Below, piece by piece: positions 6,425 to 42,340 of a DNA stretch of 64,000 bases; positions within the stretch are counted from its first letter, which is position 1; the number at the start of each line of letters is the position of its first letter. The notes beneath the pieces were generated by a model. It was not told where the DNA came from. It made no database searches and saw only the letters and a program-made list of their open reading frames with translations. The translations under genes were made by a program, and so were the position numbers. The DNA lies in the IMG/VR virus record IMGVR_UViG_3300035698_013504, positions 96,001 to 160,000 of that record. One strand, given 5' to 3'. Origin of the DNA: a virus. Its lineage: Duplodnaviria > Caudoviricetes.

Positions 6425-8197
6425 ATGACAAACGCATTTTCATCAAGATCAGGGTGCTCGCTACCGGCTATACCGGCTATCGATGGCAACCTGCTGCCCA
6501 GTTGCACACTTGAGCTGCCCCCGGACCCTATATTCGCTGGCAACTACTTTGATTTCCCCATCCCGCCGCCGCCGGACTTCCTTTTTGGATGTTACGAGTT
6601 CGGTTTCCAGCACACGGGCACCGCCTGGACAGATCTTCAGGCAGTAGCTGAAGAGTCATCCGCGTTTGCGACCCCGGACCTATGCAATCCTACGGTCGAC
6701 GTACTGGTCTTGCCTGACGACGAACTGGGGTGGTGTGACCCAAAGGTCACGTTTGATCTAAAAATCCCAGCTACGCACATTACGATCTTTAACCCGGAAC
6801 GTCCCAGCTGTAAACACACGCTTGGCCGTATTGACATAGTTGAGAACCCCGGTTGTCGGTCTGTGCTCTCGATGGTGTTAACGTGGGCTGAGGCGTGCTT
6901 TGCGCCTGAAGTAAGCTTTAGCCCGGTCATCATATCGCCGGAGCTGCCGTCTCCGATACTTCCTTCTCCCGACGTATCCATTGAGGTATCCCCCGACGTA
7001 TCCATATCTCCTGGGGTATCCATATCTCCTGGGGTATCCATATCTCCTGGGATATCTGTATCGCCTGAAATAACGCCCAGCCCCGACCCGCCGTGGTTCT
7101 CGCCTGCAATTTGTACCCCGTCTTTATGTTGCTTCGGTAACTTCTCGGAGTACTACGGCGGTGAGTGTTCTACCGAAGCGAACGAGGCCGTGTGGGACTC
7201 GCTGGGTGGCCTTGGCCAATGGAATATGCAGTGCGGTCCCGACTCCACTTGTTCCGACGAGTATGACTGCGTCTATTCCATTGAATCGATGTATGTAGAC
7301 GGATTATGTCAGATACACTGGTGCCTGGAAGATGACGGCTGCACCTCCCCTTCGCCGTCTCCGACACCGACGCCGACTCCCGAGCCGACCCCTACTCCCG
7401 AGCCGACTCCGACGCCAACTCCAGAGCCGACTCCGACTCCGACCCCAGAGCCGACTCCGACCCCAACTCCAGAGCCGACTCCGACCCCGACCCCAGAGCC
7501 GACTCCGACCCTAGAGCCGACTCCGACTCCGTCCTCCCTTAGCCCAGGCCCGCCAGGCTGGACATGCGTTGAGAGAATAGATAAAGATGCGCTCGGAGCT
7601 ACAACCAGTCATACAGCAAAATGTTGGGCCGACACTTCAAGGTGGTTCGACTGGTTTGATTTCGACAAAGAATACACATTCGGCGACGGGACGTTTATAT
7701 TCCACAGTCTTGGAAGCTACCCAGATGCTTTTGAGTGTGAATTCTATTGTGAAGTGTCGCCGTCGCCATCTCCGAGCCCGTCTCCGAGCCCATCTCCAAG
7801 CCCGTCTCCAAGCCCATCTCCGAGCCCGTCTCCAGAGGAGGGCACTCTTTATATAACGTTCTCGAATCTCCGGCACGGGTTCACGCCTAGAGAGGGAGAA
7901 CATATGCTCATTGGTAGCATGGTGGGTGGCTCGTGGATTGACCCGGGAGATACCAACACTAGGCTCACATGGATGGGTAGCTTCTGGCGCACAGAATTCA
8001 GCGTCAACTACAACTGTGCGTGCGGGTTTGCTGACTCCTCAGGTTTAGGTCGCTGGGACAACCCGTGGAATGGCGTCTATGACCAGATCCACGGCTGTGC
8101 AGACTCCAACTGCGACGGTCCTCTTGGTAACCAAAGTTGTGATGTAGCTGGAGATGAGCCCCCGTATACGTGTACGGTTTCACTTTACCCGGCGTAG
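6425..8197 (+). CDS. Cys-rich modular protein (590 aa) with [14 protein letters not shown] and PS repeats; probable tail fibre/adhesin
   Basis: Cys-rich blocks separated by Pro/Ser/Thr linkers; last gene of the structural run. Confidence 0.55.
6998..7051 (+). repeat. 18-bp perfect tandem repeat x3 (gtatccatatctcctggg; VSISPG)
   Basis: Copies at 6998, 7016 and 7034. Confidence 0.95.
7349..7530 (+). repeat. Pro-Thr/Glu linker with imperfect 24-bp tandem units (ccagagccgactccgac...)
   Basis: Encodes [28 protein letters not shown]... Confidence 0.9.
7756..7833 (+). repeat. Ser-Pro dipeptide repeat (12-bp units ccRtctccRagc)
   Basis: Encodes (SP)13. Confidence 0.9.
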
Positions 8198-8223
8198 TAG
8201 CTTGACCTGTTAAGGAAAACCCG

Positions 8224-8658
8224 ATGGACATACTAGAAGACATAGACGAACCGTACCCTAAAGTTATGCAGGACTTTGACGCGGCGAAGAAACTCAACTG
8301 CCCGCACATGAGGCCCATAAAGAACGGGCCACTATCTAACTGCGAGCTTATCGCAGAGCTGGGCGGTGGGGATCTGCCTTTTGTCGGATCCATTTGCCTT
8401 AGTTGCGCTGGCGGGCCGCACCCATTTACTAAAGAAAGCCCACGTCTTAGAACTCTTGCCGCGCAGAGCATTCGAGTCATGGTCCGCGCAAGGTGTAAAA
8501 CGATAACTGAGGACACGCTCCTCAAGAGTGTGCGAGCTATAAAGGTATACACGGACGTCAACACCGCTGGAGGCATTCTCGTTCAGTGGGTACGTGACGG
8601 TTTACCGCAAGACCTTGCCGTCAAAGCAGCAACTAAAGAACTTTCTGAATTGATGTAA
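8224..8658 (+). CDS. hypothetical Cys-containing protein (144 aa)
   Basis: ORF with aaggaaaacccgATG start context; C..C motifs. Confidence 0.6.
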   Translation: MDILEDIDEPYPKVMQDFDAAKKLNCPHMRPIKNGPLSNCELIAELGGGDLPFVGSICLSCAGGPHPFTKESPRLRTLAAQSIRVMVRARCKTITEDTLLKSVRAIKVYTDVNTAGGILVQWVRDGLPQDLAVKAATKELSELM

Positions 8659-8713
8659 AGGCATAACAACGGTACTATGTAGCTGCGGCGCAGCATATAG
8701 AGGAGATACACCG

Positions 8714-10888
8714 ATGGCGGAAGACAACATCCTGGCGCGTATCCACGCGGCAACACAGGAGCTCAGCACAAACGGGGAGCTAGACAGGCGGATACACGAA
8801 GAGCTTACTCCCGGCATCAAGACACGGGTAATAGGTCCGTGCGCTTACAGGGGCAACGAGAAAGAGGCGCGAGAGAAACCGTGTTGTGGGGGTAAGAAAA
8901 CACGGGAAATCCTTTTTGCCTGTAGTCACCCAGAAATTGCAGCCGGGGAATCCTGGTCCGCTATCTGTCAGCGCTGTAGGTTCATATCCCCGGTCGCAAG
9001 CCAACCAAACAGCCTGCTGGGCGCCAAACGCATACTTGTTATGCCGTGGGGAGACAAGGGATCTATCCGCAACCTAATCCAAGCCCTCGACAAAATGTCG
9101 TTTGACGTGTCGGTTCTCCAACGTGGTGGAGGTGAGTGGAAGGACGCCGCGGTTGAGAAACTGAAGAACGAGCACTTCGACCTTGTTGTAACCTGGCAAC
9201 GCCTTTATAGCATGGGCTGGTGCGAAGAGGTCAACAAGATCATTGACGCGCGGAACATCCCTAAGCTCATCTTGGACTTTGGCGTGTGGGACCACTACAA
9301 GTCGGCTATCGTCGACCCGGTTGGTGATAACGCCGAATCTGCGGTAGCCGGTAACTTCATTCGGTTACTGCAAAACCCCTTGCAAGCCAAAGCTACAACA
9401 GATGCAATGATACGGTTACCGGCAATGGTTGATACGGTTAAGGCGTCGGCCGAGATAGGGGCGACGTATCTGGACGATGCAAACCTGTCCGGTCTTCCTA
9501 AAGACTTTATGCTTCTGCTTCTGCAGCGTACAGGAGACCAAGTACTTCTACGAGACGCTCCAAAGTCTAGGCAGGATCAAAGCCGTGTCGCCCGAGATAT
9601 CATTGCTGAGGCAAGACTCGCAGGCAAGTTTGTGGTTGTCAAGCCCCACCCGTTTGATAAGCCTTTAGAGGGCGTAGAGGCATCTGGGCCGCATCACCGG
9701 CTAGTAACAAACTTGACGATGGGAGATCAGAACACCGCGGTACTGTCGCATCTGCTGCTTAACTGCGAGCGGATGATCACCGTGAACTCCACAACAATCT
9801 TTATGGCCCAGTTGCTAGGCGTACCTGTATTCACGCTTGGTAAAGGCTGGTTTTCTGGGAACAGAGTTGCAAATGAACCCCCGCTGATTCGCGGTGCGGT
9901 TCTTGATAAGAATGCAGTAGACGTAGAGTACGCCAAGAAGTTCTTCGCGTTTATGTATAGCCGACAACTAACAATCGGTGAGTGTGGCGAGCCGGAAGCC
10001 GTGCTCAGGATCCTGAAGCTCATGCACCCGTCTTTGCTAGAGTCTTCGGAGGTGCAATCAAGCTCGTCGCCAGAGCCTCCAAAGGTTCCGACGCCGCAAA
10101 TCACGATGCCTACTATCAACGCCCAGGCCTTGTCGAAGACCCTAAAGCCCGCCCCACGCTCTGAGATGAAAGACGTTACCGCCATGCTGTTGACATGGAA
10201 GAGAGACTCCGCGCAGCAAGTAGTTAACTCTTTGCGCGACTCGGGCGTACAGAACATCTGGATATGGTGCAATGAGGGCGCAGCTGTACCTGATGGGGTC
10301 GATGTGTCCATCGTGTCTTCTACCAACCTAGGTAACTGGCAGCGTTTTGCGATGGCGCCGCTGGTTCCAACTTCACACATCCTTTATTGCGACGACGACT
10401 GTACGATTACGCCTGCCGGTATTCAGGCCCTTTCCAAGGGTATGGCGACGTTCCCCAACAACGTACTTGGTTTATGGGGGTGGGCGTTTAACCCGTCGTT
10501 CGAACACTACCGCCAGCGGGAGGAATTTCATAGCCACACGCTGCAGGGACATCAAGCGATGTATGCCGATATGATCTCCCCGTGTGGAATGCTCGCGCCG
10601 CGTATCGCTATCCAAGAGGCTATGGGTAAGGTTAACTACTGGAACACAGCCCTGAAGATATTTGGCGACCACACGTTGGACGATATGACACTTTGCCTGG
10701 CGATGTCGAAATGCGGATGTGGCAGGCCCGCTGTCGTACAGGGTGAGGGGGCCGGACTCAAGTTTATCAAAGACACCGCCCCCGCGTCTTCACTCGCTCT
10801 GAAACCGGGCCGTCGAGAGATACTATACACAGAGACACTTCCGGCGTTCCGCGGAATCGGATGGAGTCCGATTAAAGAGGGGAAGTAA
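8714..10888 (+). CDS. fusion of a Cys-rich N-terminus, a KpsS/KpsC-like capsule-modification (GT-B) domain and a C-terminal GT2/GT-A domain
   Basis: VVVKPHPFD and ITVNSTT..AQLLGVPVFTLG (KpsS-like); MLLTWKRD and HILYCDDDC DxD motif (GT-A); strong SD aggag. Confidence 0.7.
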   Translation: MAEDNILARIHAATQELSTNGELDRRIHEELTPGIKTRVIGPCAYRGNEKEAREKPCCGGKKTREILFACSHPEIAAGESWSAICQRCRFISPVASQPNSLLGAKRILVMPWGDKGSIRNLIQALDKMSFDVSVLQRGGGEWKDAAVEKLKNEHFDLVVTWQRLYSMGWCEEVNKIIDARNIPKLILDFGVWDHYKSAIVDPVGDNAESAVAGNFIRLLQNPLQAKATTDAMIRLPAMVDTVKASAEIGATYLDDANLSGLPKDFMLLLLQRTGDQVLLRDAPKSRQDQSRVARDIIAEARLAGKFVVVKPHPFDKPLEGVEASGPHHRLVTNLTMGDQNTAVLSHLLLNCERMITVNSTTIFMAQLLGVPVFTLGKGWFSGNRVANEPPLIRGAVLDKNAVDVEYAKKFFAFMYSRQLTIGECGEPEAVLRILKLMHPSLLESSEVQSSSSPEPPKVPTPQITMPTINAQALSKTLKPAPRSEMKDVTAMLLTWKRDSAQQVVNSLRDSGVQNIWIWCNEGAAVPDGVDVSIVSSTNLGNWQRFAMAPLVPTSHILYCDDDCTITPAGIQALSKGMATFPNNVLGLWGWAFNPSFEHYRQREEFHSHTLQGHQAMYADMISPCGMLAPRIAIQEAMGKVNYWNTALKIFGDHTLDDMTLCLAMSKCGCGRPAVVQGEGAGLKFIKDTAPASSLALKPGRREILYTETLPAFRGIGWSPIKEGK

Positions 10889-31416: not shown

Positions 31417-33528
31417 ATGCGACTACTAACCGCTAAACTCAGTAACTTTTGTCAGCACAGAGACCTTACGGTTGGGTTCTCGCCTGGAGTCAACGGGATC
31501 TTCGGACCCAATGGCTGCGGCAAGTCCAACCTGCTCCGTGCAATCTATTTCGCGTTTACCGGCGAGACCCCTAACATCGGCTCTAAGTCCGATGACATCA
31601 GCAACGGCGCCGACAAGGGCTTTGTTGAGGTGGAGTTCGAGGTCAACGGAGAAGTGGGTTCTATCCGTCGTCAGCTGCGTACGTCTACATGCGTACTCAA
31701 GCTTGGCGATCAGCGCTTTGGCAGCGCGAAAGAAGTCAACGCTAACCTCTGGCCTATTCTTGGTGTGTCCAAGGATCTGCTAGGTCGTACGATCTTTGTT
31801 CACCAGGAACAGCTGGACTCTGTTATCTTCGAACGGCCCGCAGAGCGGAACGCCGCGTTTCAGCGCCTGTTCAAGACGTATCGTTCGGAGGAGATTAGAG
31901 AGGTACTCCATGGAGAACTCTCACGGGTTCAGGTTGTGTCCTACGATGAGCGTATTGACGAGATGGAGAGGGAGCTGCGCGAGGTTGTCTCTGTAGACCT
32001 TACATCGGCCATTGCCACAAAGGAAGCCGCGGAGACGGAACTCGCCACGATTGACGAGACAGCTCTTCGTAACCGGATGGCCGCCCACAGTAACGCCGAC
32101 CTTGAGTTGCGTAAGCTACACACGCTCGTCAACGAGTTGAATGCCGCCAAATATGATCGTGTCAAGGCCAATGACATTGTTCAGTCGGTAAGTGATGCAG
32201 TTACAACGCTTGAGTGTCAGCGTGACGAGATTGCCGGAGACCTACCAAAGCTCCAAGCTCGTTACCAGGAGCTTCTCGTCTTGCAGCGGGATCGTCAGAC
32301 GCTCGAGTCCCTATCCGCAGAGGCTAAGACATTAGCGTCGTCTCGTCGTGACCCCCCGGTTCCGCCGGGTTATCCGCGGGACGAGGTACCTAAGGCGGAG
32401 GACTTTGTACAGCAACTCTCCACCGACATCGAGATAAACCACAGATTCGTTACGGCGATACGGGCCGACGGCAAGTGTGCCTTCTGCCAGTCTGTTGTTG
32501 ATCAGGCGCCGCAGAAGGTTGCCACAGCACAGTCACGAGCTGTCAAGCTTGCTGAGCAGCACAAAGCCTGTCTTGAGGAGTTCACGCGTCTTAGAGCCGG
32601 TTGGAGCGAGTATGATATCTCGAAGTCCACACACGATGAGTGGGCTCGCAACTATCAGATTCGTTGTTCACATGTTATGGACCAGCTGAAGGCTATTGGC
32701 GACGTTCCCCCAGTCTACGAAGAGCAGTTGACGGAAGTCGCTGCAGCGTTACAGAAGTATCGGTTGATCGAAGATGATCTTACGGTTCGTCGTCAGCAGT
32801 TCAACACTGCGCGCGACCGCAGGGCGTCTTTGGATACCACGATCGTATTGCTCGAGGAGCGTAACAAGATGGCCCTTGAGTTGCATAAGCAACTTATGGA
32901 CTCGGAGGCGTACGAGGAAGTTCGTCTGTCGCTGTTACGGGCCGACGAGTTGCGCCGAACTGTTGGTGAGTCGGAAGGTAAAATCGGCACGCTGACGCAG
33001 CAGCAAGAGACACAGGCGGCTAAGCTGGAAGACATGAAGCAGAAGGAGGCAGAGTCTGGCGCAAAGCGTAAGTACCAGGATCTGCTCACACGGTCACGAG
33101 TTGTTCTACACCGCGACCGTCTTCCCAATGTTGTCGCTCAGTCTTTCCGTGACGCCCTCAACAGTCGTCTCTTCAAATACCTGAGTCTCTTCGAGGCTCC
33201 GTTCAGCTGTGCCTTGCAGCAGGACTTGTCGTTCGTCTGTTCGTTCCCAGGCGGGTGGCAACCTGATGCTGGTCGGTTGTCCGGCGGCGAGCGTGTCGTT
33301 CTTGCGATCGCTTTTAGGTTTGCCGTCAACGATTTGTTCGCGTCACAGCTTGGCCTGCTGGCTCTCGATGAGCCTACTCGCTGGTTGGACGACGGGAACA
33401 TTGACCATGTTATCAACATCCTAGATCGTACCAAGAAGCTCACGTCCTCCGGGGCGTGGCAGGTGCTTGTTGTCACGCACGCTGACGCCCTTAAGTCCAC
33501 GTGCGACAATCGTATCGTTCTCGGGTAA
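31417..33528 (+). CDS. sbcC: Rad50/SbcC/gp46-like SMC ATPase
   Basis: GPNGCGKS, Q-loop FVHQEQ, CAFC zinc hook within coiled coil, LSGGE signature, LLALDEP, VVTH. Confidence 0.92.
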   Translation: MRLLTAKLSNFCQHRDLTVGFSPGVNGIFGPNGCGKSNLLRAIYFAFTGETPNIGSKSDDISNGADKGFVEVEFEVNGEVGSIRRQLRTSTCVLKLGDQRFGSAKEVNANLWPILGVSKDLLGRTIFVHQEQLDSVIFERPAERNAAFQRLFKTYRSEEIREVLHGELSRVQVVSYDERIDEMERELREVVSVDLTSAIATKEAAETELATIDETALRNRMAAHSNADLELRKLHTLVNELNAAKYDRVKANDIVQSVSDAVTTLECQRDEIAGDLPKLQARYQELLVLQRDRQTLESLSAEAKTLASSRRDPPVPPGYPRDEVPKAEDFVQQLSTDIEINHRFVTAIRADGKCAFCQSVVDQAPQKVATAQSRAVKLAEQHKACLEEFTRLRAGWSEYDISKSTHDEWARNYQIRCSHVMDQLKAIGDVPPVYEEQLTEVAAALQKYRLIEDDLTVRRQQFNTARDRRASLDTTIVLLEERNKMALELHKQLMDSEAYEEVRLSLLRADELRRTVGESEGKIGTLTQQQETQAAKLEDMKQKEAESGAKRKYQDLLTRSRVVLHRDRLPNVVAQSFRDALNSRLFKYLSLFEAPFSCALQQDLSFVCSFPGGWQPDAGRLSGGERVVLAIAFRFAVNDLFASQLGLLALDEPTRWLDDGNIDHVINILDRTKKLTSSGAWQVLVVTHADALKSTCDNRIVLG

Positions 33529-33533
33529 CACAA

Positions 33534-33564
33534 GGGGTGGGGGTTCTATACGGCCCCCCACCCT
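33534..33564 (+). terminator. GC-rich hairpin after sbcC (gggtggggg/cccccaccc), with a weak U-tract
   Basis: 9-10 bp stem 6 nt after the stop codon. Confidence 0.5.
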
Positions 33565-33611
33565 CTATGTTGTAGTTGTCAAGAAATTTACCAATAGGGT
33601 TAATATTCTGG

Positions 33612-33640
33612 TTGACAACTAGACCCACTATTGATACACT
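33612..33640 (+). promoter_or_regulatory. sigma70-type promoter TTGACA-N17-TACACT
   Basis: Perfect -35 at 33612-17 and -10 at 33635-40; the -35 lies in one arm of a 10-bp inverted repeat (33573-82/33612-21). Confidence 0.75.
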
Positions 33641-33689: not shown

Positions 33690-34211
33690 ATGATCGAAGT
33701 AGTGGCGAAACTGGAGTTCATTACGCCGTGCCTCGGGAGTTTGAGGCAGCGTAAGAACCAGACGGGCGTGATACGAATGCCTCGCGATTCACAGGGGCAA
33801 GTCATATTCATGCAGACGTGGTGGCGCGGCGTGCTGGAGTACGGCGCCAAGGCGATGACCCGCCACCAGGAACACGTAAAGAACATTCAGGTGGACACCG
33901 TTGTTGACGGCCCAGTCCGCCGGTTCACACGACACTTCCGTAACCAAGGGCGCCAGGGTACGCAGATTCACGAGGCGTACATCGCAGGCGCGGTTGTGGC
34001 GGTCAACTTCATGTTACCGTCAGACATATCCGTAGAAGCGTTTACGGAGATTTTGAGTATTGGCGGCCAGTACCTTGGAATTTCACCTTACGGATGGAGA
34101 GAGGATTATGGACGATTCCGCGTTGTCGACGTCAGCCCCAGATCAAGAGCAAAGTCCAGTGATCCTGATTCGCCGACAGGGCAACCTGATACAGGTGACC
34201 CCGAGTCTTGA
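33690..34211 (+). CDS. solitary RAMP-superfamily (Cas7/Csm3/Cmr-like) protein, 173 aa
   Basis: RAMP motif order: beta1 KLEFITPCLG; PRDSQGQVIFMQTWWRGVL (R-D..G.P.IPGSSxKG equivalent); HEAYIAGAVVAVNF; terminal Gly-rich loop GGQYLGISPYGWREDYGRFRV. Confidence 0.6.
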   Translation: MIEVVAKLEFITPCLGSLRQRKNQTGVIRMPRDSQGQVIFMQTWWRGVLEYGAKAMTRHQEHVKNIQVDTVVDGPVRRFTRHFRNQGRQGTQIHEAYIAGAVVAVNFMLPSDISVEAFTEILSIGGQYLGISPYGWREDYGRFRVVDVSPRSRAKSSDPDSPTGQPDTGDPES

Positions 34212-35622
34212 ACCCTTGCTTGGACCAGAGTTGCGGTATTCTCATTTGAATCTGAACTTCACCCCTAGGGGTCGCCCCCGTCAGGAGTCTGACGGGGAAA
34301 AGGAAGACAAGCCCCCAGTGGAGCAGCGCCTTCTCTACACAATAGACGCCAGCGGGTCTCTCGTTTGTCCGGCCGGGTTGACGGAGCGTGTTTGTAGTAT
34401 CCTCACAAGGTTTCGTTATAGATACCGCATTGAGGACCTGCGCACACTTCCGCCGATCGAGCATGACTTATCACACCTTACGTCTCTGCGCCCCGGCCAG
34501 GACGAGTCGATCGCAGCGGTCATTTCCCATGATCACGGGCAGATCGTTGCCCCGACAGCCTTTGGTAAGTCACACCTAATGCGCCTTATCTGTGCGATAT
34601 ATCCCGACGTACCTATCGTTATATGCGTACCCGGTATATCTATCTTGCAGGGCCATTATCGTCAGCTACATCATTTCCTACCCGCATCGGAGATAGGCAT
34701 TGTAGGTGGCGGCAAGCGAGACCCTAAGCGCGTCACAGTATCGACGACCCAATCGCTTTTACATACAGATGTGGAGAAGTGTAGGTTGTTGCTCTTCGAC
34801 GAGGTCCACAAGGCCGCGGCCGAAGAGACGTCTAAGATGCTTGGCAAGTTCAGTAATGCCCGTATGTTTGGATTCACGGCATCGCCAGAAGGTCGGTCTG
34901 ATCGTGCAGAGCCTGTTATCGAGGCGCTGTTCGGGCCGGTTATCTACAGCATGCCATATCAGCGCGCGCTTCAGCTCGGGCTGATCTCACAGATATACGT
35001 GCACATCAACCCGGTGTCCGGTGACCCCATCGACAACGTGACCCGCGCCGGTAGGCTGCGTAATGGCGCCTGGTACAACAATGTACGGAACCGACGTATT
35101 GCTGAGGTAGCCCGTCGCTACGATAACGATACCCAGGTTCTAATCACCGTTGAGACCGTACAGCACGCTTTTGCGTTGAAACATCTGTTGCCGGAGTTCC
35201 ACGTGTGTTATGCCGGTATAGACGAGAAGTCTCAGAAGGCCCTCGCTAATCGTGGGTTTCTTCCTCCCGACTTCACACCCCTTGACGGTAACGGCCGGAT
35301 GCAGATGCAGGACATGTTCGAGCGTAGGCAGTTGTTGAAGGCTATCTCAACGCCTATCTGGAATACTGGTGTAGACTTTACAGGATTGGAAGTACTCATC
35401 CGTGCCGACGCCGGGTCTGGCGAGATTGGTAACATCCAGATACCCGGTAGGTTGTCTCGTATTTCCGAAGGTAAAGAGGGCGGTATCCTCGAAGACTTCG
35501 GCGACGAGTTCGACCCATATTTCCGTCGGAGAGCGCAGGACCGTCTCCGATCATACAAAAAACGAGGATGGGAGATCGTGAAATGCCAGGAGGGTCAGTA
35601 TCTTCAGCAGAGGGCGACATGA
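34108..35622 (+). CDS. SF2 DExH helicase, UvsW-like
   Basis: LRPGQ, APTAFGKS, LLFDEVH, FGFTASP, NTGVDF and QIPGRLSR motifs; start uncertain (ATG 34108 or GTG about 34159). Confidence 0.9.
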   Translation: MDDSALSTSAPDQEQSPVILIRRQGNLIQVTPSLEPLLGPELRYSHLNLNFTPRGRPRQESDGEKEDKPPVEQRLLYTIDASGSLVCPAGLTERVCSILTRFRYRYRIEDLRTLPPIEHDLSHLTSLRPGQDESIAAVISHDHGQIVAPTAFGKSHLMRLICAIYPDVPIVICVPGISILQGHYRQLHHFLPASEIGIVGGGKRDPKRVTVSTTQSLLHTDVEKCRLLLFDEVHKAAAEETSKMLGKFSNARMFGFTASPEGRSDRAEPVIEALFGPVIYSMPYQRALQLGLISQIYVHINPVSGDPIDNVTRAGRLRNGAWYNNVRNRRIAEVARRYDNDTQVLITVETVQHAFALKHLLPEFHVCYAGIDEKSQKALANRGFLPPDFTPLDGNGRMQMQDMFERRQLLKAISTPIWNTGVDFTGLEVLIRADAGSGEIGNIQIPGRLSRISEGKEGGILEDFGDEFDPYFRRRAQDRLRSYKKRGWEIVKCQEGQYLQQRAT

Positions 35623-37623: not shown

Positions 37624-38708
37624 TGGGCGTGTTAAACGTCGCACTTTACTCCTCCCTGGTTCGTCGCTTTGGGGAGGTACGCATCGTTGGTGGAGGGCAG
37701 CCTGTACGTTATCACGTGCTGTCCGATACGCGTAAGAGCTGGAAGGAGAGGCTTATCATTCCTCCCGGCGGCGCTGGTGAGTACTATGTAGTGTGCTGCC
37801 CGTGGTGTAACGACCGGAAGTTCAGGTTGTACATTAACCACAGGTGGAACACAACATGGGTAGACCCGGTACACGGCGAGATTGAGTTCGGAGGTTGGTT
37901 GGCCGTCTGTTACAACGAGCGTTGCTGCCAGGTCTATTCAGACTTGAAGGATCAGCTCAAGGCGTACATCTACCGCAAGAACAAGAAGCTGTGGGTGCCA
38001 CCCAAGGCGGCAACTCAGGTAGAGTTTAAGACGGTTGGTCTGCCGGGTTCGTGTGTACCCATCAACTCGTTGCCCCCAGACCACAAGGCGGTGCAGTACT
38101 TAGAGAGTCGCGGTTTCAACGTCGACCACATGAGTGAGCACTACGCTGTACAGTACTGCTGGAAAGCGACAGAGAGCCCGAACTACAAGGCGTCTCTTGT
38201 CGAGGATCGTATCGTCTTCCCCATTTACCGAGAGGGCGCGTGCATCGGCTGGCAAGCGAGGTTTGTTGGCGACCCGCCGAGCAAGAAGATTCCGAAGTAC
38301 TACACCATGCCCGGGTATCCGGTTCACTGGTGGCTGTACGGTTACGACGCTGCAAAGGAGTACCCCTACGGCGTACTCGTAGAAGGAATCCCGTCCGTAA
38401 TTCGTCTTGGACCCCCCGCTGTTGCGCTGATGGGTAAGTTCGTGTCAGCTCGGCATAGTATCCTAATGCAGGAGGCGTGGGACTCTTTGGTGATTGCCCT
38501 TGACCCAGACGTATACGAGGACAAGTCTTACGTGGCAAAGTACGTCAACGCAAACCCGTGGGAAGATCCGTATGGATCGTTCAGCCGTGGGAAAACACGA
38601 ATAATGTTCCCCAAGGACACGGACCCAGCCGATTTCCCTCAAGAAGAGAGTTGGCGAATTATAATGTCGCAAGTGAAGGAGGCCACGCCAGATGCTAGAA
38701 TGGCATGA
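37623..38708 (+). CDS. dnaG: DNA primase (DnaG/TOPRIM type)
   Basis: CCPWC..H..C Zn domain, DRIVFPI, WQAR, VLVEG, IALDPD. Confidence 0.85.
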   Translation: MGVLNVALYSSLVRRFGEVRIVGGGQPVRYHVLSDTRKSWKERLIIPPGGAGEYYVVCCPWCNDRKFRLYINHRWNTTWVDPVHGEIEFGGWLAVCYNERCCQVYSDLKDQLKAYIYRKNKKLWVPPKAATQVEFKTVGLPGSCVPINSLPPDHKAVQYLESRGFNVDHMSEHYAVQYCWKATESPNYKASLVEDRIVFPIYREGACIGWQARFVGDPPSKKIPKYYTMPGYPVHWWLYGYDAAKEYPYGVLVEGIPSVIRLGPPAVALMGKFVSARHSILMQEAWDSLVIALDPDVYEDKSYVAKYVNANPWEDPYGSFSRGKTRIMFPKDTDPADFPQEESWRIIMSQVKEATPDARMA

Positions 38709-40878
38709 GATAGAGCTTGATCCACAAGTCTTGGAGGAGAACCCCTTCACCGAGGAATTTGTTGCTCAGGCGGCGAAGATGAACTTCTCGCCTGAAGTCT
38801 ACATGCGCCATCTGATGGTGGAGCCGCTGTCAATGGTAGTTCACGACAAGTACAGTAACTCGACAGTAAGAACACACATCCCTGGCCATCTACTCGATTT
38901 TGCTAGCCCAGGGCCTCACCCCGCAGCGGTAATGATCATGGGCAAGATGCCCAACCGTGACGACGCGGCTGCAGGTAAGTACCTCGAGGGTCCTTCGGGC
39001 GATAAGCTCAAAGAGGCTTTCAAGGCTTGCAACATGAGTAGCTCTTACATGTACGCGACGAACGTCCTTAAGTTTCAGCTGCCGGAGAGTATGAAGAACC
39101 CACCGGCCGCGTTCTTAAAGTACGACCGTCCGATACTCATGCAGGAGATAGCACTCGTAAAGCCTAGATTCATCCTGTTGCTTGGTTCGATTGCTGTCAA
39201 GGCTGTCTTCGGTAAGAAGGCAACGATAACAAGGTACCGTGGAGCCCTCGTTGATTGGAACGGGGCCAGGGTGCTGGCGACAATTGATCCGGCGGTGTTA
39301 GTTCGTGACCCGAGCCTTTTACCCGGGTTCCTCTCCGACATTCGTAACTTCTGTGCAGCCATCGAAGAGGAGTCACAGGTAGAGGTAGAGCGCGAGCAGC
39401 TCAACTACTACTACATGGACACTGTTGAGAAGGTAGAGGCGTACTGTGATGTATGTGAGAAGCGTGGCGACAAGATTTTCGCGGTTGACTGTGAGTGGGC
39501 GGGCCAGAGCATATGGGATCCTGACGGATACCTACGGACCATCCAATTTTCAGCCAGACCAAGAGAAGCCGCTGTCGTTATTCTTCGAGACGAAGAAGGT
39601 CGGGAAATCCTGAGCCAACACGCTCTTCAGGTTTCTGACCGGTTACGTAAGATGCTGACGCGTGACGGCGTTGGTATCGTAGGACACTACATCCGTGCTG
39701 ACCTCCCGTGGCTTTACGACTTTGGCCTGGACCTCTTGTCGAGGGTTTGCTTCGACACGATCCTGGCGAGCCACTTGTTACAGGAGTCGCTGGACCACAA
39801 GTTGGAATCTTGCGCTGTCCGACACACTACGATGGGTAGATACGACTTGGCGGTAAAGCTTTGGCTGTCTGATAACAAGACCAAAGAGGATCTCAAGGCG
39901 GAGGGTTATCGGGACGTACCGGACGAGTTACTTCTTCCGTACGCCGCCGCCGATGCCGACGTTACACGTAGGATCTATGAGTTGTTCCACGCTGAGCTTG
40001 AGCGTGACCCGATGTTACACAACCTGTATTACAACGTGGTCATGCGAGCGACGTACCCTATTCTCGAGATGGAGATGAGCGGCATAGCTGTCGATAAAGA
40101 CAGGCTGCTGTTCATGCGCGATGTTTACGAGAAGCGCCTAAATGAGATGATAGACGAGCTACGCCAGATGATTGGTGACCCGGAGTTCAACGTGAGGTCA
40201 CCTCTTCAGGTACAGCAGCTTCTTTTCATGGAGGCTCCAAGAGGATTGGGCTTAACGCCCGTTAAGAGTACAGCCGCAACTCATAACATGGATTGGGAGA
40301 CCGCGGTTCGTAAGTTTGAGAAGCGTGAGATCTTCATCCCACCCCAGCCGTCGACGGATAGCGAGTCGTTGAGTATTCTTGCCGTGGAGTCTCCGATTGC
40401 CGAGTTGGTGCGGGATATCCGCATGGTGGACCAGGTAACGAAGAACTTCTTGCAGGGACCCGACGACACCGGCGAGTACAGCCGTGGCTTGATTGGGGCC
40501 ATTGACCCCGACGGCCGGATACGCACGAACCTAAGCCAGATGACGGAGACAGGCAGGCATAGATCGTTCAATCCTAATCTGCAGAACATCACGAAGGCAA
40601 AGGAAGATGATCTCGCTAAGATCATGGGACCCGGTGTCCCCACGATGCGTTCGTGCTTCATCGCCTCACCCGGGTGTGTATTGATTGAGGCAGACTACGT
40701 GTCAGCGGAAGTTATTGTGCTTGGTCACCTTTCTGGCGATCAGAGATTGTTAGCTGACGCTAAAGGAGATATCCACTCTCAGAATGCTGTGGATTTGATC
40801 GGAGCGCAGTGTAGTGTGGAGGAAGTGAAAGAAGCCTTCCCAGGGCTTCGCGTGGCAGCCAAATCCTTGACTTTCGGT
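38692..40878 (+). CDS. polA: family A DNA polymerase with N-terminal uracil-DNA glycosylase (family 4-like) domain and 3'-5' exonuclease; exon 1
   Basis: MIMGKMPN..D...G..LEGPSG, YATNVLKF and ILLLGSIA (UDG); FAVDCE and YAAADAD (exonuclease); TGR...NPNLQNI, LIEADY..AEV, KSLTFG (PolA motifs). Ends in U at 40878. Confidence 0.9.
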
Positions 40879-41746
40879 CGAATGTCGAGTAGCATGGTTG
40901 CAGTTGTCACGCGTGATCGTAATCAAGGAGAGCAGCCATGCCCAGATCAATGTCTATCGAGAAGAACTGTGAACAGTGCGGTAAAAAGTTTTCCCCAAGC
41001 AATAGAGGTAAGCGCGGAAGGGAGCAGAAGTATTGCTCTTCATCGTGTGGACTTCGTGGCGCCAGACCGTCTAGAGAAGTGTGTTGCAAGTATTGTAAGA
41101 CAACGTTTCTCCACCGAGGTAGAGGCCGACGGCTATTTTGCGATCGTTGTATGGTCGTGCGTCGGCGGGAGTACACGCTGGAGTACCGTATACGCCAGGG
41201 TACTATTGAAAAACCAGGCGTTGGGTCAGGAGGTAACCAGTGGGGTGAGAAGAATCACAGCTGGAAGCCGGTGGATCAGCGGAAAACCACGAAGTACAAA
41301 GGAAACTATCGGACAAGATGTTTTCGTGTGTGGGATAAAACGTGTGTCGTCTGCGGATCAGAGGATCGCATACAAGCCCACCATATTGACGGAGACTCAC
41401 AGAACTTTAAGACAGACAACCTTGTGCCCCTTTGCCATGAGCACCACTGGGTGGTGCATCACGACAGACGAGCTACAAAGGAAGAGCTACTCGACGCTCT
41501 ATTCAAGATCTGGCCAAAAGGCCGAATCAAAATCGCGGAAAAAACGGGGATCTCCCACGTGGACAACCCGAGGTGAAGGCCGCTGTAAAGGCGCCCAGCC
41601 GCAACGACTAGGTGGTGAGGCCGGTGTTAGTGTTCCGGCGTATAATCTACCCACGAGGCCGCGACCTGGAAACAGGAAGAGATAGTCTGGCCTTACAGGT
41701 AACTGTAAGAAGCACCGGATAAAGAGCCGGTGCGATAACAACAGCG
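40879..41746 (+). mobile_element. group I self-splicing intron (868 nt) in polymerase motif B
   Basis: P1: exon ttcggU pairs with gtcgag (U-G at the splice site). P10: gaat with exon 2 attc. P7: GACUA (41606-10) and AAGAGAUAGUC (41677-87). P9 stems cttacag/ctgtaag and gcaccgg/ccggtgc. Terminal G at 41746. Splicing restores AKSLTFG|IPYSRGA. Confidence 0.92.
40938..41576 (+). CDS. intron-encoded HNH homing endonuclease with N-terminal Zn fingers
   Basis: CEQCG..YCSSSC, CKYC..FCDRC, GEKNHSWK, CVVCG....AHHIDG...N...NLVPLCHEHHWVVH. Confidence 0.9.
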   Translation: MPRSMSIEKNCEQCGKKFSPSNRGKRGREQKYCSSSCGLRGARPSREVCCKYCKTTFLHRGRGRRLFCDRCMVVRRREYTLEYRIRQGTIEKPGVGSGGNQWGEKNHSWKPVDQRKTTKYKGNYRTRCFRVWDKTCVVCGSEDRIQAHHIDGDSQNFKTDNLVPLCHEHHWVVHHDRRATKEELLDALFKIWPKGRIKIAEKTGISHVDNPR

Positions 41747-42340
41747 ATTCCGTATTCAAGAGGCGCCAGAGCGGTTGCCCGAGAAATTCAACGAAGAGGC
41801 GTACCCTGTACGCCGGAGCAAGCTCAAGGTTTTATCGATGCATACAATCTGAAGTACATGTATGTGGCGGAGTTTATGAAGGATGTGAAGTCCGCCGTCA
41901 CAGATCCTGGTTATGTTGTGAGTCCATTCGGTCGTCGCCGTCGTTTCGGTGGCGCCGAGATTAACGACACCTCAATCATTGCAGCAATGCAGCGTGAAGC
42001 AGGCAACTTTCCCATCCAATCTACGGTAGCAGATATCCTAAATAGCGCGGCGTATGCGCTATGGCTCTACAGACACTTTCATCCGGACGCTCCGGAGTTT
42101 AAGATAGTCCTAGCTATACATGACGCCCTTCTCGTCGAATGTGCCGCGAGAGATGCGCACCGTGTAGCAACGGCGCTGTCTATGTGTATGTGCAGCGTTA
42201 AGGTACCGCATTTTAATTTCTCGCTCGAAGTGGACGTAGACGTGTTCATGGAGTGGGGAATTCACCCAAGGAAGGAGGATCTCATAGCACGAGGAATGCC
42301 TGAAGAACATGCTTTGATGTATGCTGCAGAGGAAAAGTGA
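41747..42340 (+). CDS. polA: family A DNA polymerase exon 2
   Basis: IPYSRGA (motif B end), SPFGRRR, REAGNFPIQSTVAD, AIHDALL (motif C). Confidence 0.9.
   Translation: MPYSRGARAVAREIQRRGVPCTPEQAQGFIDAYNLKYMYVAEFMKDVKSAVTDPGYVVSPFGRRRRFGGAEINDTSIIAAMQREAGNFPIQSTVADILNSAAYALWLYRHFHPDAPEFKIVLAIHDALLVECAARDAHRVATALSMCMCSVKVPHFNFSLEVDVDVFMEWGIHPRKEDLIARGMPEEHALMYAAEEK

Follow-up and report, generated by a model that had tools for sequence, protein, structure and literature searches.

The virus record IMGVR_UViG_3300035698_013504 (Duplodnaviria; Caudoviricetes) is a complete genome of 200,903 bp with direct terminal repeats, here called G000, and the 64,000-nucleotide (nt) stretch G000:96001-160000 is the window analysed in this work; coordinates without a prefix refer to it. 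The window encodes a small protein, here termed mini-RAMP, whose predicted structure has the RAMP fold and whose sequence profile is specifically akin to that of Vipr, the RAMP of the phage-encoded VIPR systems. The gene is as follows:

33690..34211, plus strand: mini-RAMP (Vipr-like) gene encoding 173 residues, supported by the open reading frame (ORF) and its translation, the protein family, the fold and the hhalign alignment to Vipr.

Its conserved core comprises residues 1-150 (33690-34139) and is followed by a variable acidic tail (residues 151-173). In the reading that we favour, and to which we give close to an even chance, this protein is an offshoot of Vipr that lacks a guide array and has been kept as a nucleic-acid-binding accessory factor acting with the recombination and replication genes of the phage.

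Phage RAMPs operating outside CRISPR are a known kind, in print since April-June 2026 in the VIPR preprints (bioRxiv 10.64898/2026.04.26.720920,.720927 and 2026.10.15.759431), and these are the phage RAMP-only guide systems to which a preliminary description of the present DNA, made from its letters alone, had referred. According to these preprints, Vipr is a phage RAMP of ~20 kDa that polymerises on vrRNAs, which consist of 9-16 YNNGG repeats and a structured tail, and silences DNA targets through a gapped code. Seven types of VIPR have been distinguished, some with a single vrRNA and some with degenerate repeat codes, and the accessory vap genes include nucleases and helicases. VIPR was also proposed in 2026 as the viral ancestor of the CRISPR RAMPs.

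An AlphaFold2 model of mini-RAMP built on an 11-sequence alignment (pLDDT 83.6, pTM 0.77) has the order β1, α1, β-strands, α2, β4, which constitutes an RRM-type (ferredoxin-like) core; helix 2 is joined to the last strand by a Gly-rich loop that aligns with the G-loop of Vipr. In a Foldseek search of the PDB, the best 50 matches were RAMPs without exception, including Csm3, type VII Cas7, domains of gRAMP/Cas7-11, Cmr subunits and Csf2, with a best E-value of 1.7e-7 for Csm3 and type VII Cas7 at a probability of 1.00. VIA-align, which was run independently of Foldseek against 48,161 representative chains, likewise placed only CRISPR RAMPs at ranks 1-30; the top scores were Z 11.4 for Cmr-beta and 11.3 for Csm, and the range of 11.4-8 covered Cmr, Csm3, Csm5, Cmr4, Csf2 and gRAMP. 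The best non-RAMP chain, an RRM of the RNase P Pop5 type, reached Z 6.9, and Cas6 chains were found at Z 6-7. The structural neighbours in the ESM Atlas are also RAMPs (TM 0.74), with look-alike clusters assigned to viruses. Finally, a search of the AlphaFold DB clusters, carried out before we knew of the VIPR preprint, returned at ranks 1-5 X1U2U4, A0A1F4YLN4, A0A2D6XG06, A0A661D0E2 and A0A0F9A1L0, which are exactly the five seed proteins of that preprint. On these models mini-RAMP is a RAMP, and the earlier proposal of a minimal RAMP/Cas7-like protein outside a CRISPR locus is borne out by all four comparisons; the AlphaFold and Foldseek test that had been suggested for it recovered the RRM-type core, and the G-rich loop is kept in the homologues.

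Profile comparisons allow the relationship to be narrowed further. In KT454805.2 the published repeat has 11 matches on either side of a two-gene unit; these led us to the SUSP1 vipr gene, to which four diverse phage homologues were added to obtain a SUSP1-clade Vipr alignment (A6). Using hhalign, the mini-RAMP family alignment (A2) matched it end to end over 141 columns (Prob 92.2%, E 5.9e-7); with the single SUSP1 Vipr sequence in its place the E-value was 1.9e-5, and a closer 11-sequence alignment of the family gave 2e-6 against the Vipr alignment. Reversed sequences yielded E-values of 0.1-0.3 and an unrelated helicase 0.4-0.5, whereas the family alignment reached a non-significant 0.38 against a (shallow) Csm3 profile; canonical Vipr itself scored 0.1 against the Csm3 profile, and alignments to the single sequences of Thermus Csm3 or Cmr4 were not significant. 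A plain hidden Markov model of Vipr, moreover, directly recovers one member of the mini-RAMP family, P0171, at E 1.9e-4. Because the E-values obtained with Vipr lie far below those of the reversed, unrelated and Csm3 comparisons, we conclude from these alignments that the mini-RAMP family is specifically kin to Vipr, and that no sequence kinship to Cas7 can be detected for either of them. The profile match to PF03787 or Csm3 that might have been expected from the preliminary description is accordingly missing: PF03787 matched neither the mini-RAMP protein, nor any of 128 family members, nor, at E<=10, the whole 200.9-kb genome, in which a systematic search for other cas genes was not made.

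The alignment to Vipr also suggests what this branch has lost. In SUSP1 Vipr, H17 and D177 read G1 and W178 stacks on G2; mutation of K33 in the helical bundle, of R138 in the thumb, or of D177 in each case abolishes silencing, and the thumb and bundle together flip the GGY and hold the skipped target base (VIPR structure preprint). Read from the hhalign alignment, whose middle, corresponding to the thumb region, is of low confidence, the equivalent positions are:

Vipr H17: Ser17 here (Asn or Ser in the family).
Vipr K33 and the helical-bundle insert: a gap of ~28 columns here.
Vipr R138 (thumb): a gap of 13 columns here.
Vipr D177: Pro133 here (Pro in 120 of the 128 members).
Vipr W178: Tyr/Phe134 here, the aromatic character being kept.
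Vipr R179: Gly135 here.

The G-loop thus reads GISPYG in mini-RAMP against GVGDWR in Vipr, and a β-hairpin at residues 77-97 with a conserved R81 may represent a short thumb. Helix 1, with its WW motif, and the G-loop, with G-[ILM]-S-P-[YF], are strongly conserved in the mini-RAMP family, and it is these two elements that provide the main surfaces for RNA binding in Vipr and Cas7.

The family defined by mini-RAMP is large and deeply diverged. At E<=1e-3, an exhaustive HMMER profile search recovered 340 clusters formed at 50% identity, 192 of them with E<=1e-10, and all the matched clusters are viral proteins of ~140-220 residues without annotation; a word-indexed search had yielded 10 relatives. 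Identity within the family falls to about 20%, and nearly none of its hundreds of clusters are represented in NCBI. Searches with the mini-RAMP protein found no match in Pfam, PHROGs, NCBIfam, PADLOC or the sequences of the PDB, and none by tblastn against 50,697 cultured phages; a scan of genome contigs revealed no close relatives. Across the 128 members on which our conservation figures are based, G130 and G141 are invariant, and F10, L15, R81, H94, E95, G100, G126, S132, P133 and F143 are conserved in at least 90%. The polar residues R81, H94, E95 and S132 stand at 91-98%, the glycines G126, G130 and G141 at 98-100%, and W44 and W45, which form the WW motif of helix 1, at about 83%. The G-loop motif of the family can be written G-x-Y-x-G-[ILM]-S-P-[YF]...[YF]-G-x-F. 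All the peptide motifs by which the preliminary description had recognised a RAMP occur in the translation of 33690-34211, and the conservation of the residues at or above the 90% level shows that these motifs are not accidental. The core is basic (median isoelectric point 9.2), and in half of the members the protein ends in a disordered tail of 15 residues or more, which is net acidic in 43 of 65 such cases. A 259-residue member, P0031, was considered as a fusion of a RAMP with a helicase N-terminal domain and dismissed, its extension being a low-complexity acidic tail.

RNA cleavage by RAMPs of the Cas6 type uses His and Ser/Tyr/Lys residues. The strong conservation of the four polar residues could hence be taken to mean that mini-RAMP is an RNase of the Cas6, Cas5d or Csm3-like kind, processing phage or host RNA through His94-Glu95, Arg81 and Ser132, and the presence of Cas6 chains among the fold matches agrees with this. 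However, Cas7-type chains match far better than Cas6; no conserved substrate hairpin or repeat adjoins the mini-RAMP gene; H94 and E95 would lie on opposite faces of the sheet, as judged from strand geometry and not from coordinates; and the Asp of the Csm3 catalytic-loop position is absent from the G000 copy. We regard a nuclease role as very improbable.

A further difference between mini-RAMP and canonical Vipr is the lack of a recognisable guide array in the G000 genome. The complete G000 sequence contains no run of at least five YNNGG units, no 9- or 12-unit YNNGG window exceeding those in shuffled sequence, and no periodicity at lag 5, where the maximum of 26/50 equals that at lags 4, 7 and 8 and compares with 33 in SUSP1; the same YNNGG pattern gives 11 matches in SUSP1, which served as a positive control. 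Neither a canonical vipr gene in G000 nor a second copy of the RAMP family was found, and the 64-kb window yielded no Rfam match. Four other genomes bearing mini-RAMP are equally devoid of arrays and of canonical vipr genes, and an 8-unit pattern allowing 3 mismatches finds nothing in them. No 20-mer occurs three or more times in the 200,903 bp, and hence the absence of a CRISPR array, which had been claimed for the window, extends to the entire genome. RNA-guided recognition, one of the activities proposed in the preliminary description, gained no support, as the YNNGG and lag-5 scans of G000 recovered no guide RNA. Two repeats of other kinds were encountered in the genome: a long tract of coding sequence at G000:67400-69000, outside the window, in which TGTGACGAGGG units (Cys-Asp-Glu-Gly) are repeated, and the 12-mer TGGGCGCTTTAC, four copies of which fall within 3.7 kb near the left genome end (G000:3437-7110).

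One relative does carry arrays. The 169-kb phage G001 (IMGVR_UViG_3300017991_000051) encodes a mini-RAMP 41% identical to that of G000, and in its locus (L007) a (YNNGG)6 run is found at L007:9895-9924, 77 nt upstream of the mini-RAMP gene. Immediately upstream of this run lies a canonical Vipr-like gene of 188 residues (L007:9306-9872). Elsewhere in G001 (C1:~7500-8760 and ~6791-6931, minus strand) a second canonical Vipr-like gene adjoins an array of eleven ~110-nt units, in each of which a conserved CCCGGG hairpin precedes a pentamer tract rich in G, on the same strand as the (YNNGG)6. The two Vipr-like genes and their arrays look like a complete VIPR system. The (YNNGG)6 run was considered as proof that the mini-RAMP family uses vrRNAs, a case weakened by the canonical gene directly upstream of it; since G001 encodes two canonical Viprs beside these repeats, the guides most simply belong to them.

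The surroundings of the mini-RAMP gene in the window are defined by the following features:

31417..33528, plus strand: Rad50/SbcC-like ATPase gene, the upstream border of the accessory slot (Pfam/PHROG; synteny in relatives).
33534..33563, plus strand: G+C-rich terminator-like hairpin 3' of the Rad50 gene, closing the upstream unit (sequence; arms covary in relatives L001 and L002).
33612..33640, plus strand: sigma70-like promoter, TTGACA-17-TACACT with an extended -10 TG, 5' of the mini-RAMP gene (consensus scan; partial conservation in L001 and L002).
34108..35622 (ATG at 34108), plus strand: ResIII/UvsW-like superfamily 2 (SF2) helicase gene (Pfam, PHROG; homologue alignment).

The promoter-like site noticed earlier is therefore present in the sequence, and L001 and L002, whose mini-RAMP proteins are 78% and 68% identical, keep the -35 hexamer and the TG of this promoter-like site; the pairing of the Rad50 terminator-like hairpin is maintained in both by compensatory changes. 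The -35 hexamer coincides with the right arm of a 10-bp inverted repeat (33573-33582 / 33612-33621). As the left arm is not kept in L001 and L002, the two closest relatives, this repeat is probably not an operator common to the family, and we rejected it as such. The flanks of the mini-RAMP gene are short, with 160 nt of intergenic sequence upstream and an overlap with the next gene downstream. The helicase frame is open from 34060 and has an alternative GTG start at 34159, and it overlaps the last 53-104 nt of the mini-RAMP ORF. Its product is 22-25% identical to cyanophage UvsW. It is followed by a 195-residue protein of no assigned function, a DnaB-like helicase, a primase and a polymerase of family A to which a uracil-DNA glycosylase (UDG) domain is fused. 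This polymerase is split into two ORFs separated by a 172-nt gap: 38692-41685 encodes the UDG, the 3'-5' exonuclease and the N-terminal portion of the polymerase (positions 7-217 of the 381 in the profile), and 41858-42340 encodes the C-terminal part in 160 residues (profile positions 251-380 of 381).

The placement between Rad50 and a UvsW-like helicase, with overlap of the helicase start and with DnaB, primase and PolA downstream, was thus correctly described from the outset. It is also conserved: in 9 of 9 contexts the order is Mre11, Rad50, 0-5 variable genes, mini-RAMP, UvsW-like helicase, a ~200-residue protein, DnaB, primase and UDG-PolA. On a tree of the helicases, the presence of mini-RAMP requires ~6 changes (at least 3 of them forced) against 18 with shuffled labels, and we therefore consider it to have descended mostly vertically, with losses.

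Taken with the fold and the alignment to Vipr, this context leads us to the following picture. Mini-RAMP would be a divergent, stripped-down relative of Vipr, a single-RRM RAMP of ~150 residues whose core is basic and whose short tail is acidic, and helix 1 and the G-loop would still serve it to bind single-stranded nucleic acid, in all likelihood RNA. What Vipr requires for reading GGY and engaging target DNA, namely the bundle, the thumb segment and the residues that read GG, appears to have been lost, and on that account mini-RAMP would no longer be a YNNGG-guided silencer. Predicted to be expressed from a promoter-proximal position in the operon together with the recombination and replication genes of the phage, it may act on RNA, or on R-loop or single-stranded DNA intermediates, sharing these substrates with the UvsW-like helicase next to it.

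Several observations weigh against this picture. Only 27 of the 74 viral loci recovered with a UvsW-like helicase contain mini-RAMP and 47 do not, so that the conservation of neighbourhood that the preliminary description proposed to test holds for the gene order and fails for the presence of the gene; an obligate partnership of mini-RAMP with the helicase was discarded on the same count. The coupling to the helicase that had been suggested is positional only, and a predicted complex of the RAMP core with the helicase scored 0.00, which is evidence neither for nor against it. In sister lineages mini-RAMP has been lost or replaced. In G001 the Rad50-helicase slot is occupied by a canonical vipr gene and a vrRNA, and in locus L021 it carries JAB-like and ThiF/E1-like genes (L021:3831-4837). 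The accessory distribution is at least as compatible with a gene of genetic conflict as with a replication factor, and perhaps more so. The hhalign alignment is weak precisely where the thumb lies. Public sequencing runs containing the stretch are all DNA runs from salt-lake metagenomes, with no RNA run among them. The genome, furthermore, holds a single (YNNGG)x4 at G000:192380-192399, in a noncoding stretch of ~600 nt, on the same strand as mini-RAMP and 62 kb from it; under the criterion of at least four units used in the VIPR preprint it is a candidate vrRNA, and ~0.2 such runs per genome are expected by chance. According to the same preprint, vrRNAs of the types NNNGG, YNNNG and NNNNG were recognised only with a language model, and our YNNGG scans would miss the weakest among them.

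The noncoding stretch itself (G000:192100-192700, outside the window and near the right genome end) contains irregular TTAGG repeats beside the (YNNGG)x4 and is a weak candidate for a lone vrRNA; no synteny was found between it and the G001 vrRNA array, and nhmmer with the G001 array unit gave no match in G000.

Some of these points would agree with mini-RAMP being the protein of a working DNA-silencing system of the VIPR type, with a guide that is very short, distant or not of the YNNGG kind, and with the helicase in the role of a Vap. The homology to Vipr, the existence of seven published types that include single vrRNAs, degenerate codes and helicase or nuclease vap genes, and the patchy distribution suited to a conflict system all agree with this, the (YNNGG)x4 could be its guide, and the changed G-loop could read another motif. 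Nevertheless, pentamer periodicity is absent from the 200.9 kb, the relaxed 8-unit pattern finds nothing in the four other family-bearing genomes, and G001, the only relative with arrays, has canonical Vipr-like genes beside them. K33 and R138, both essential for SUSP1 silencing, are missing by alignment, the intergenic flanks are short, and the helicase is a core gene that mostly occurs without the RAMP. On balance we think such a system unlikely.

The slot between Rad50 and the helicase is occupied by a variety of other genes. Besides the G001 vipr-vrRNA unit and the JAB and ThiF genes, we found a ~300-residue family (with or without the RAMP), proteins of ~100 residues and a dATP/dGTP pyrophosphohydrolase, and in 2 of the 27 mini-RAMP loci another gene separates mini-RAMP from the helicase. 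Because of the incidence of 27 in 74 and of these varied occupants, mini-RAMP is best classed as an accessory gene outside the core replisome. In L021, a gene for a 682-residue protein of no assigned function directly precedes mini-RAMP, downstream of the JAB-like and ThiF/E1-like genes. The ~300-residue family is marked by a 'DPRWF(I/V)DP' motif and occupies the Rad50-helicase slot of 40 among the 74 loci (L025:2926-3927, L029:2854-3768, L088:2786-3733 and others); it is not present in G000, shows a weak PHROG transposase match (phrog_4285), and has a region reminiscent of the helix-hairpin-helix of IS110. Displacement of mini-RAMP by this protein was considered and set aside, since 20 loci have both.

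A variable slot of this kind would also accommodate a counter-weapon, namely a truncated look-alike of Vipr or Cas7 that poisons the filament of a rival VIPR system or a host class 1 effector, or soaks up their guides. Precedents exist, in that viral homologues of Cas5 (AcrIB3), Cas8b (AcrIB4) and Cas3 (AcrVIA2) are proven anti-CRISPRs (bioRxiv 10.1101/2023.06.24.545427), and conflicts between VIPR systems involve orphan parts and redirection (VIPR preprints). In G001 mini-RAMP lies directly beside the vipr-vrRNA unit, and a protein that has lost the target-engaging parts and retained helix 1 and the G-loop has the expected look of a dominant-negative protomer. Against such a decoy, replacement of the GG-reading Asp by a nearly invariant Pro makes binding of GGY guides doubtful; the family is old, with identities of ~20%, its own invariant motifs (HE, SP) and mostly vertical inheritance; and transcription would proceed from the predicted promoter of the replication operon. 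No sequence likeness to any Cas7 was detected, unlike the known Cas-derived anti-CRISPR proteins, and the anti-CRISPR activity envisaged earlier found no positive evidence. We consider a decoy function quite improbable.

Beyond this single gene, a wider proposition is offered more tentatively: that the family represents a large unannotated branch of the ancient Vipr/RAMP lineage of viruses, working without a pentamer-repeat guide, either co-opted for recombination and replication, on RNA or R-loops with the UvsW-like helicase, or using a new guide code. If this were true, it would provide the first example of a RAMP whose conserved role lies beyond CRISPR and canonical VIPR alike. The claim of an undescribed system holds only in half, the protein lineage being by now in print; what appears to be new is the branch without the bundle, the guide array and the GG-reading residues. 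A large sister family that has an RNA-binding core but neither array nor thumb segment nor bundle is relevant to what an ancestral RAMP did before it acquired guides, as well as to the number of guide codes that exist. In practical terms, several hundred viral protein clusters can now be labelled, and mini-RAMP provides a very small (~150-residue) RAMP scaffold for tests of nucleic-acid binding.

Among known systems, the Cas7-group RAMPs (Csm3, Cmr4, type VII Cas7, Csf2 and the gRAMP domains) share with mini-RAMP the fold and the order of motifs, at VIA-align Z 9-11. They differ in that mini-RAMP is much smaller, is not matched by their sequence profiles, and comes without partner subunits or an array, the G000 copy also lacking the catalytic-loop Asp. 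The viral Cas-derived anti-CRISPRs resemble it as stand-alone Cas-like genes in phages without a CRISPR locus, but they retain sequence identity to their Cas parents (~24% for AcrVIA2), whereas mini-RAMP shows none and belongs to an old, mostly vertically inherited viral lineage. The closest counterpart is Vipr of type II from Escherichia phage SUSP1, which is likewise phage-encoded, of ~20 kDa, built on one RRM whose G-loop ends in [YF]-G-R-F, and, like mini-RAMP, not associated with a CRISPR array or cas genes. Relative to this Vipr, mini-RAMP is 25-45 residues shorter and has no YNNGG vrRNA array in its genome and no small vap gene; it is short-flanked and heads a replisome operon. Helicases occur among the vap genes of VIPR, and the SF2 helicase encoded by the gene following mini-RAMP might serve as such an accessory, while it is also a core replication gene that occurs without mini-RAMP in 47 of the 74 loci.

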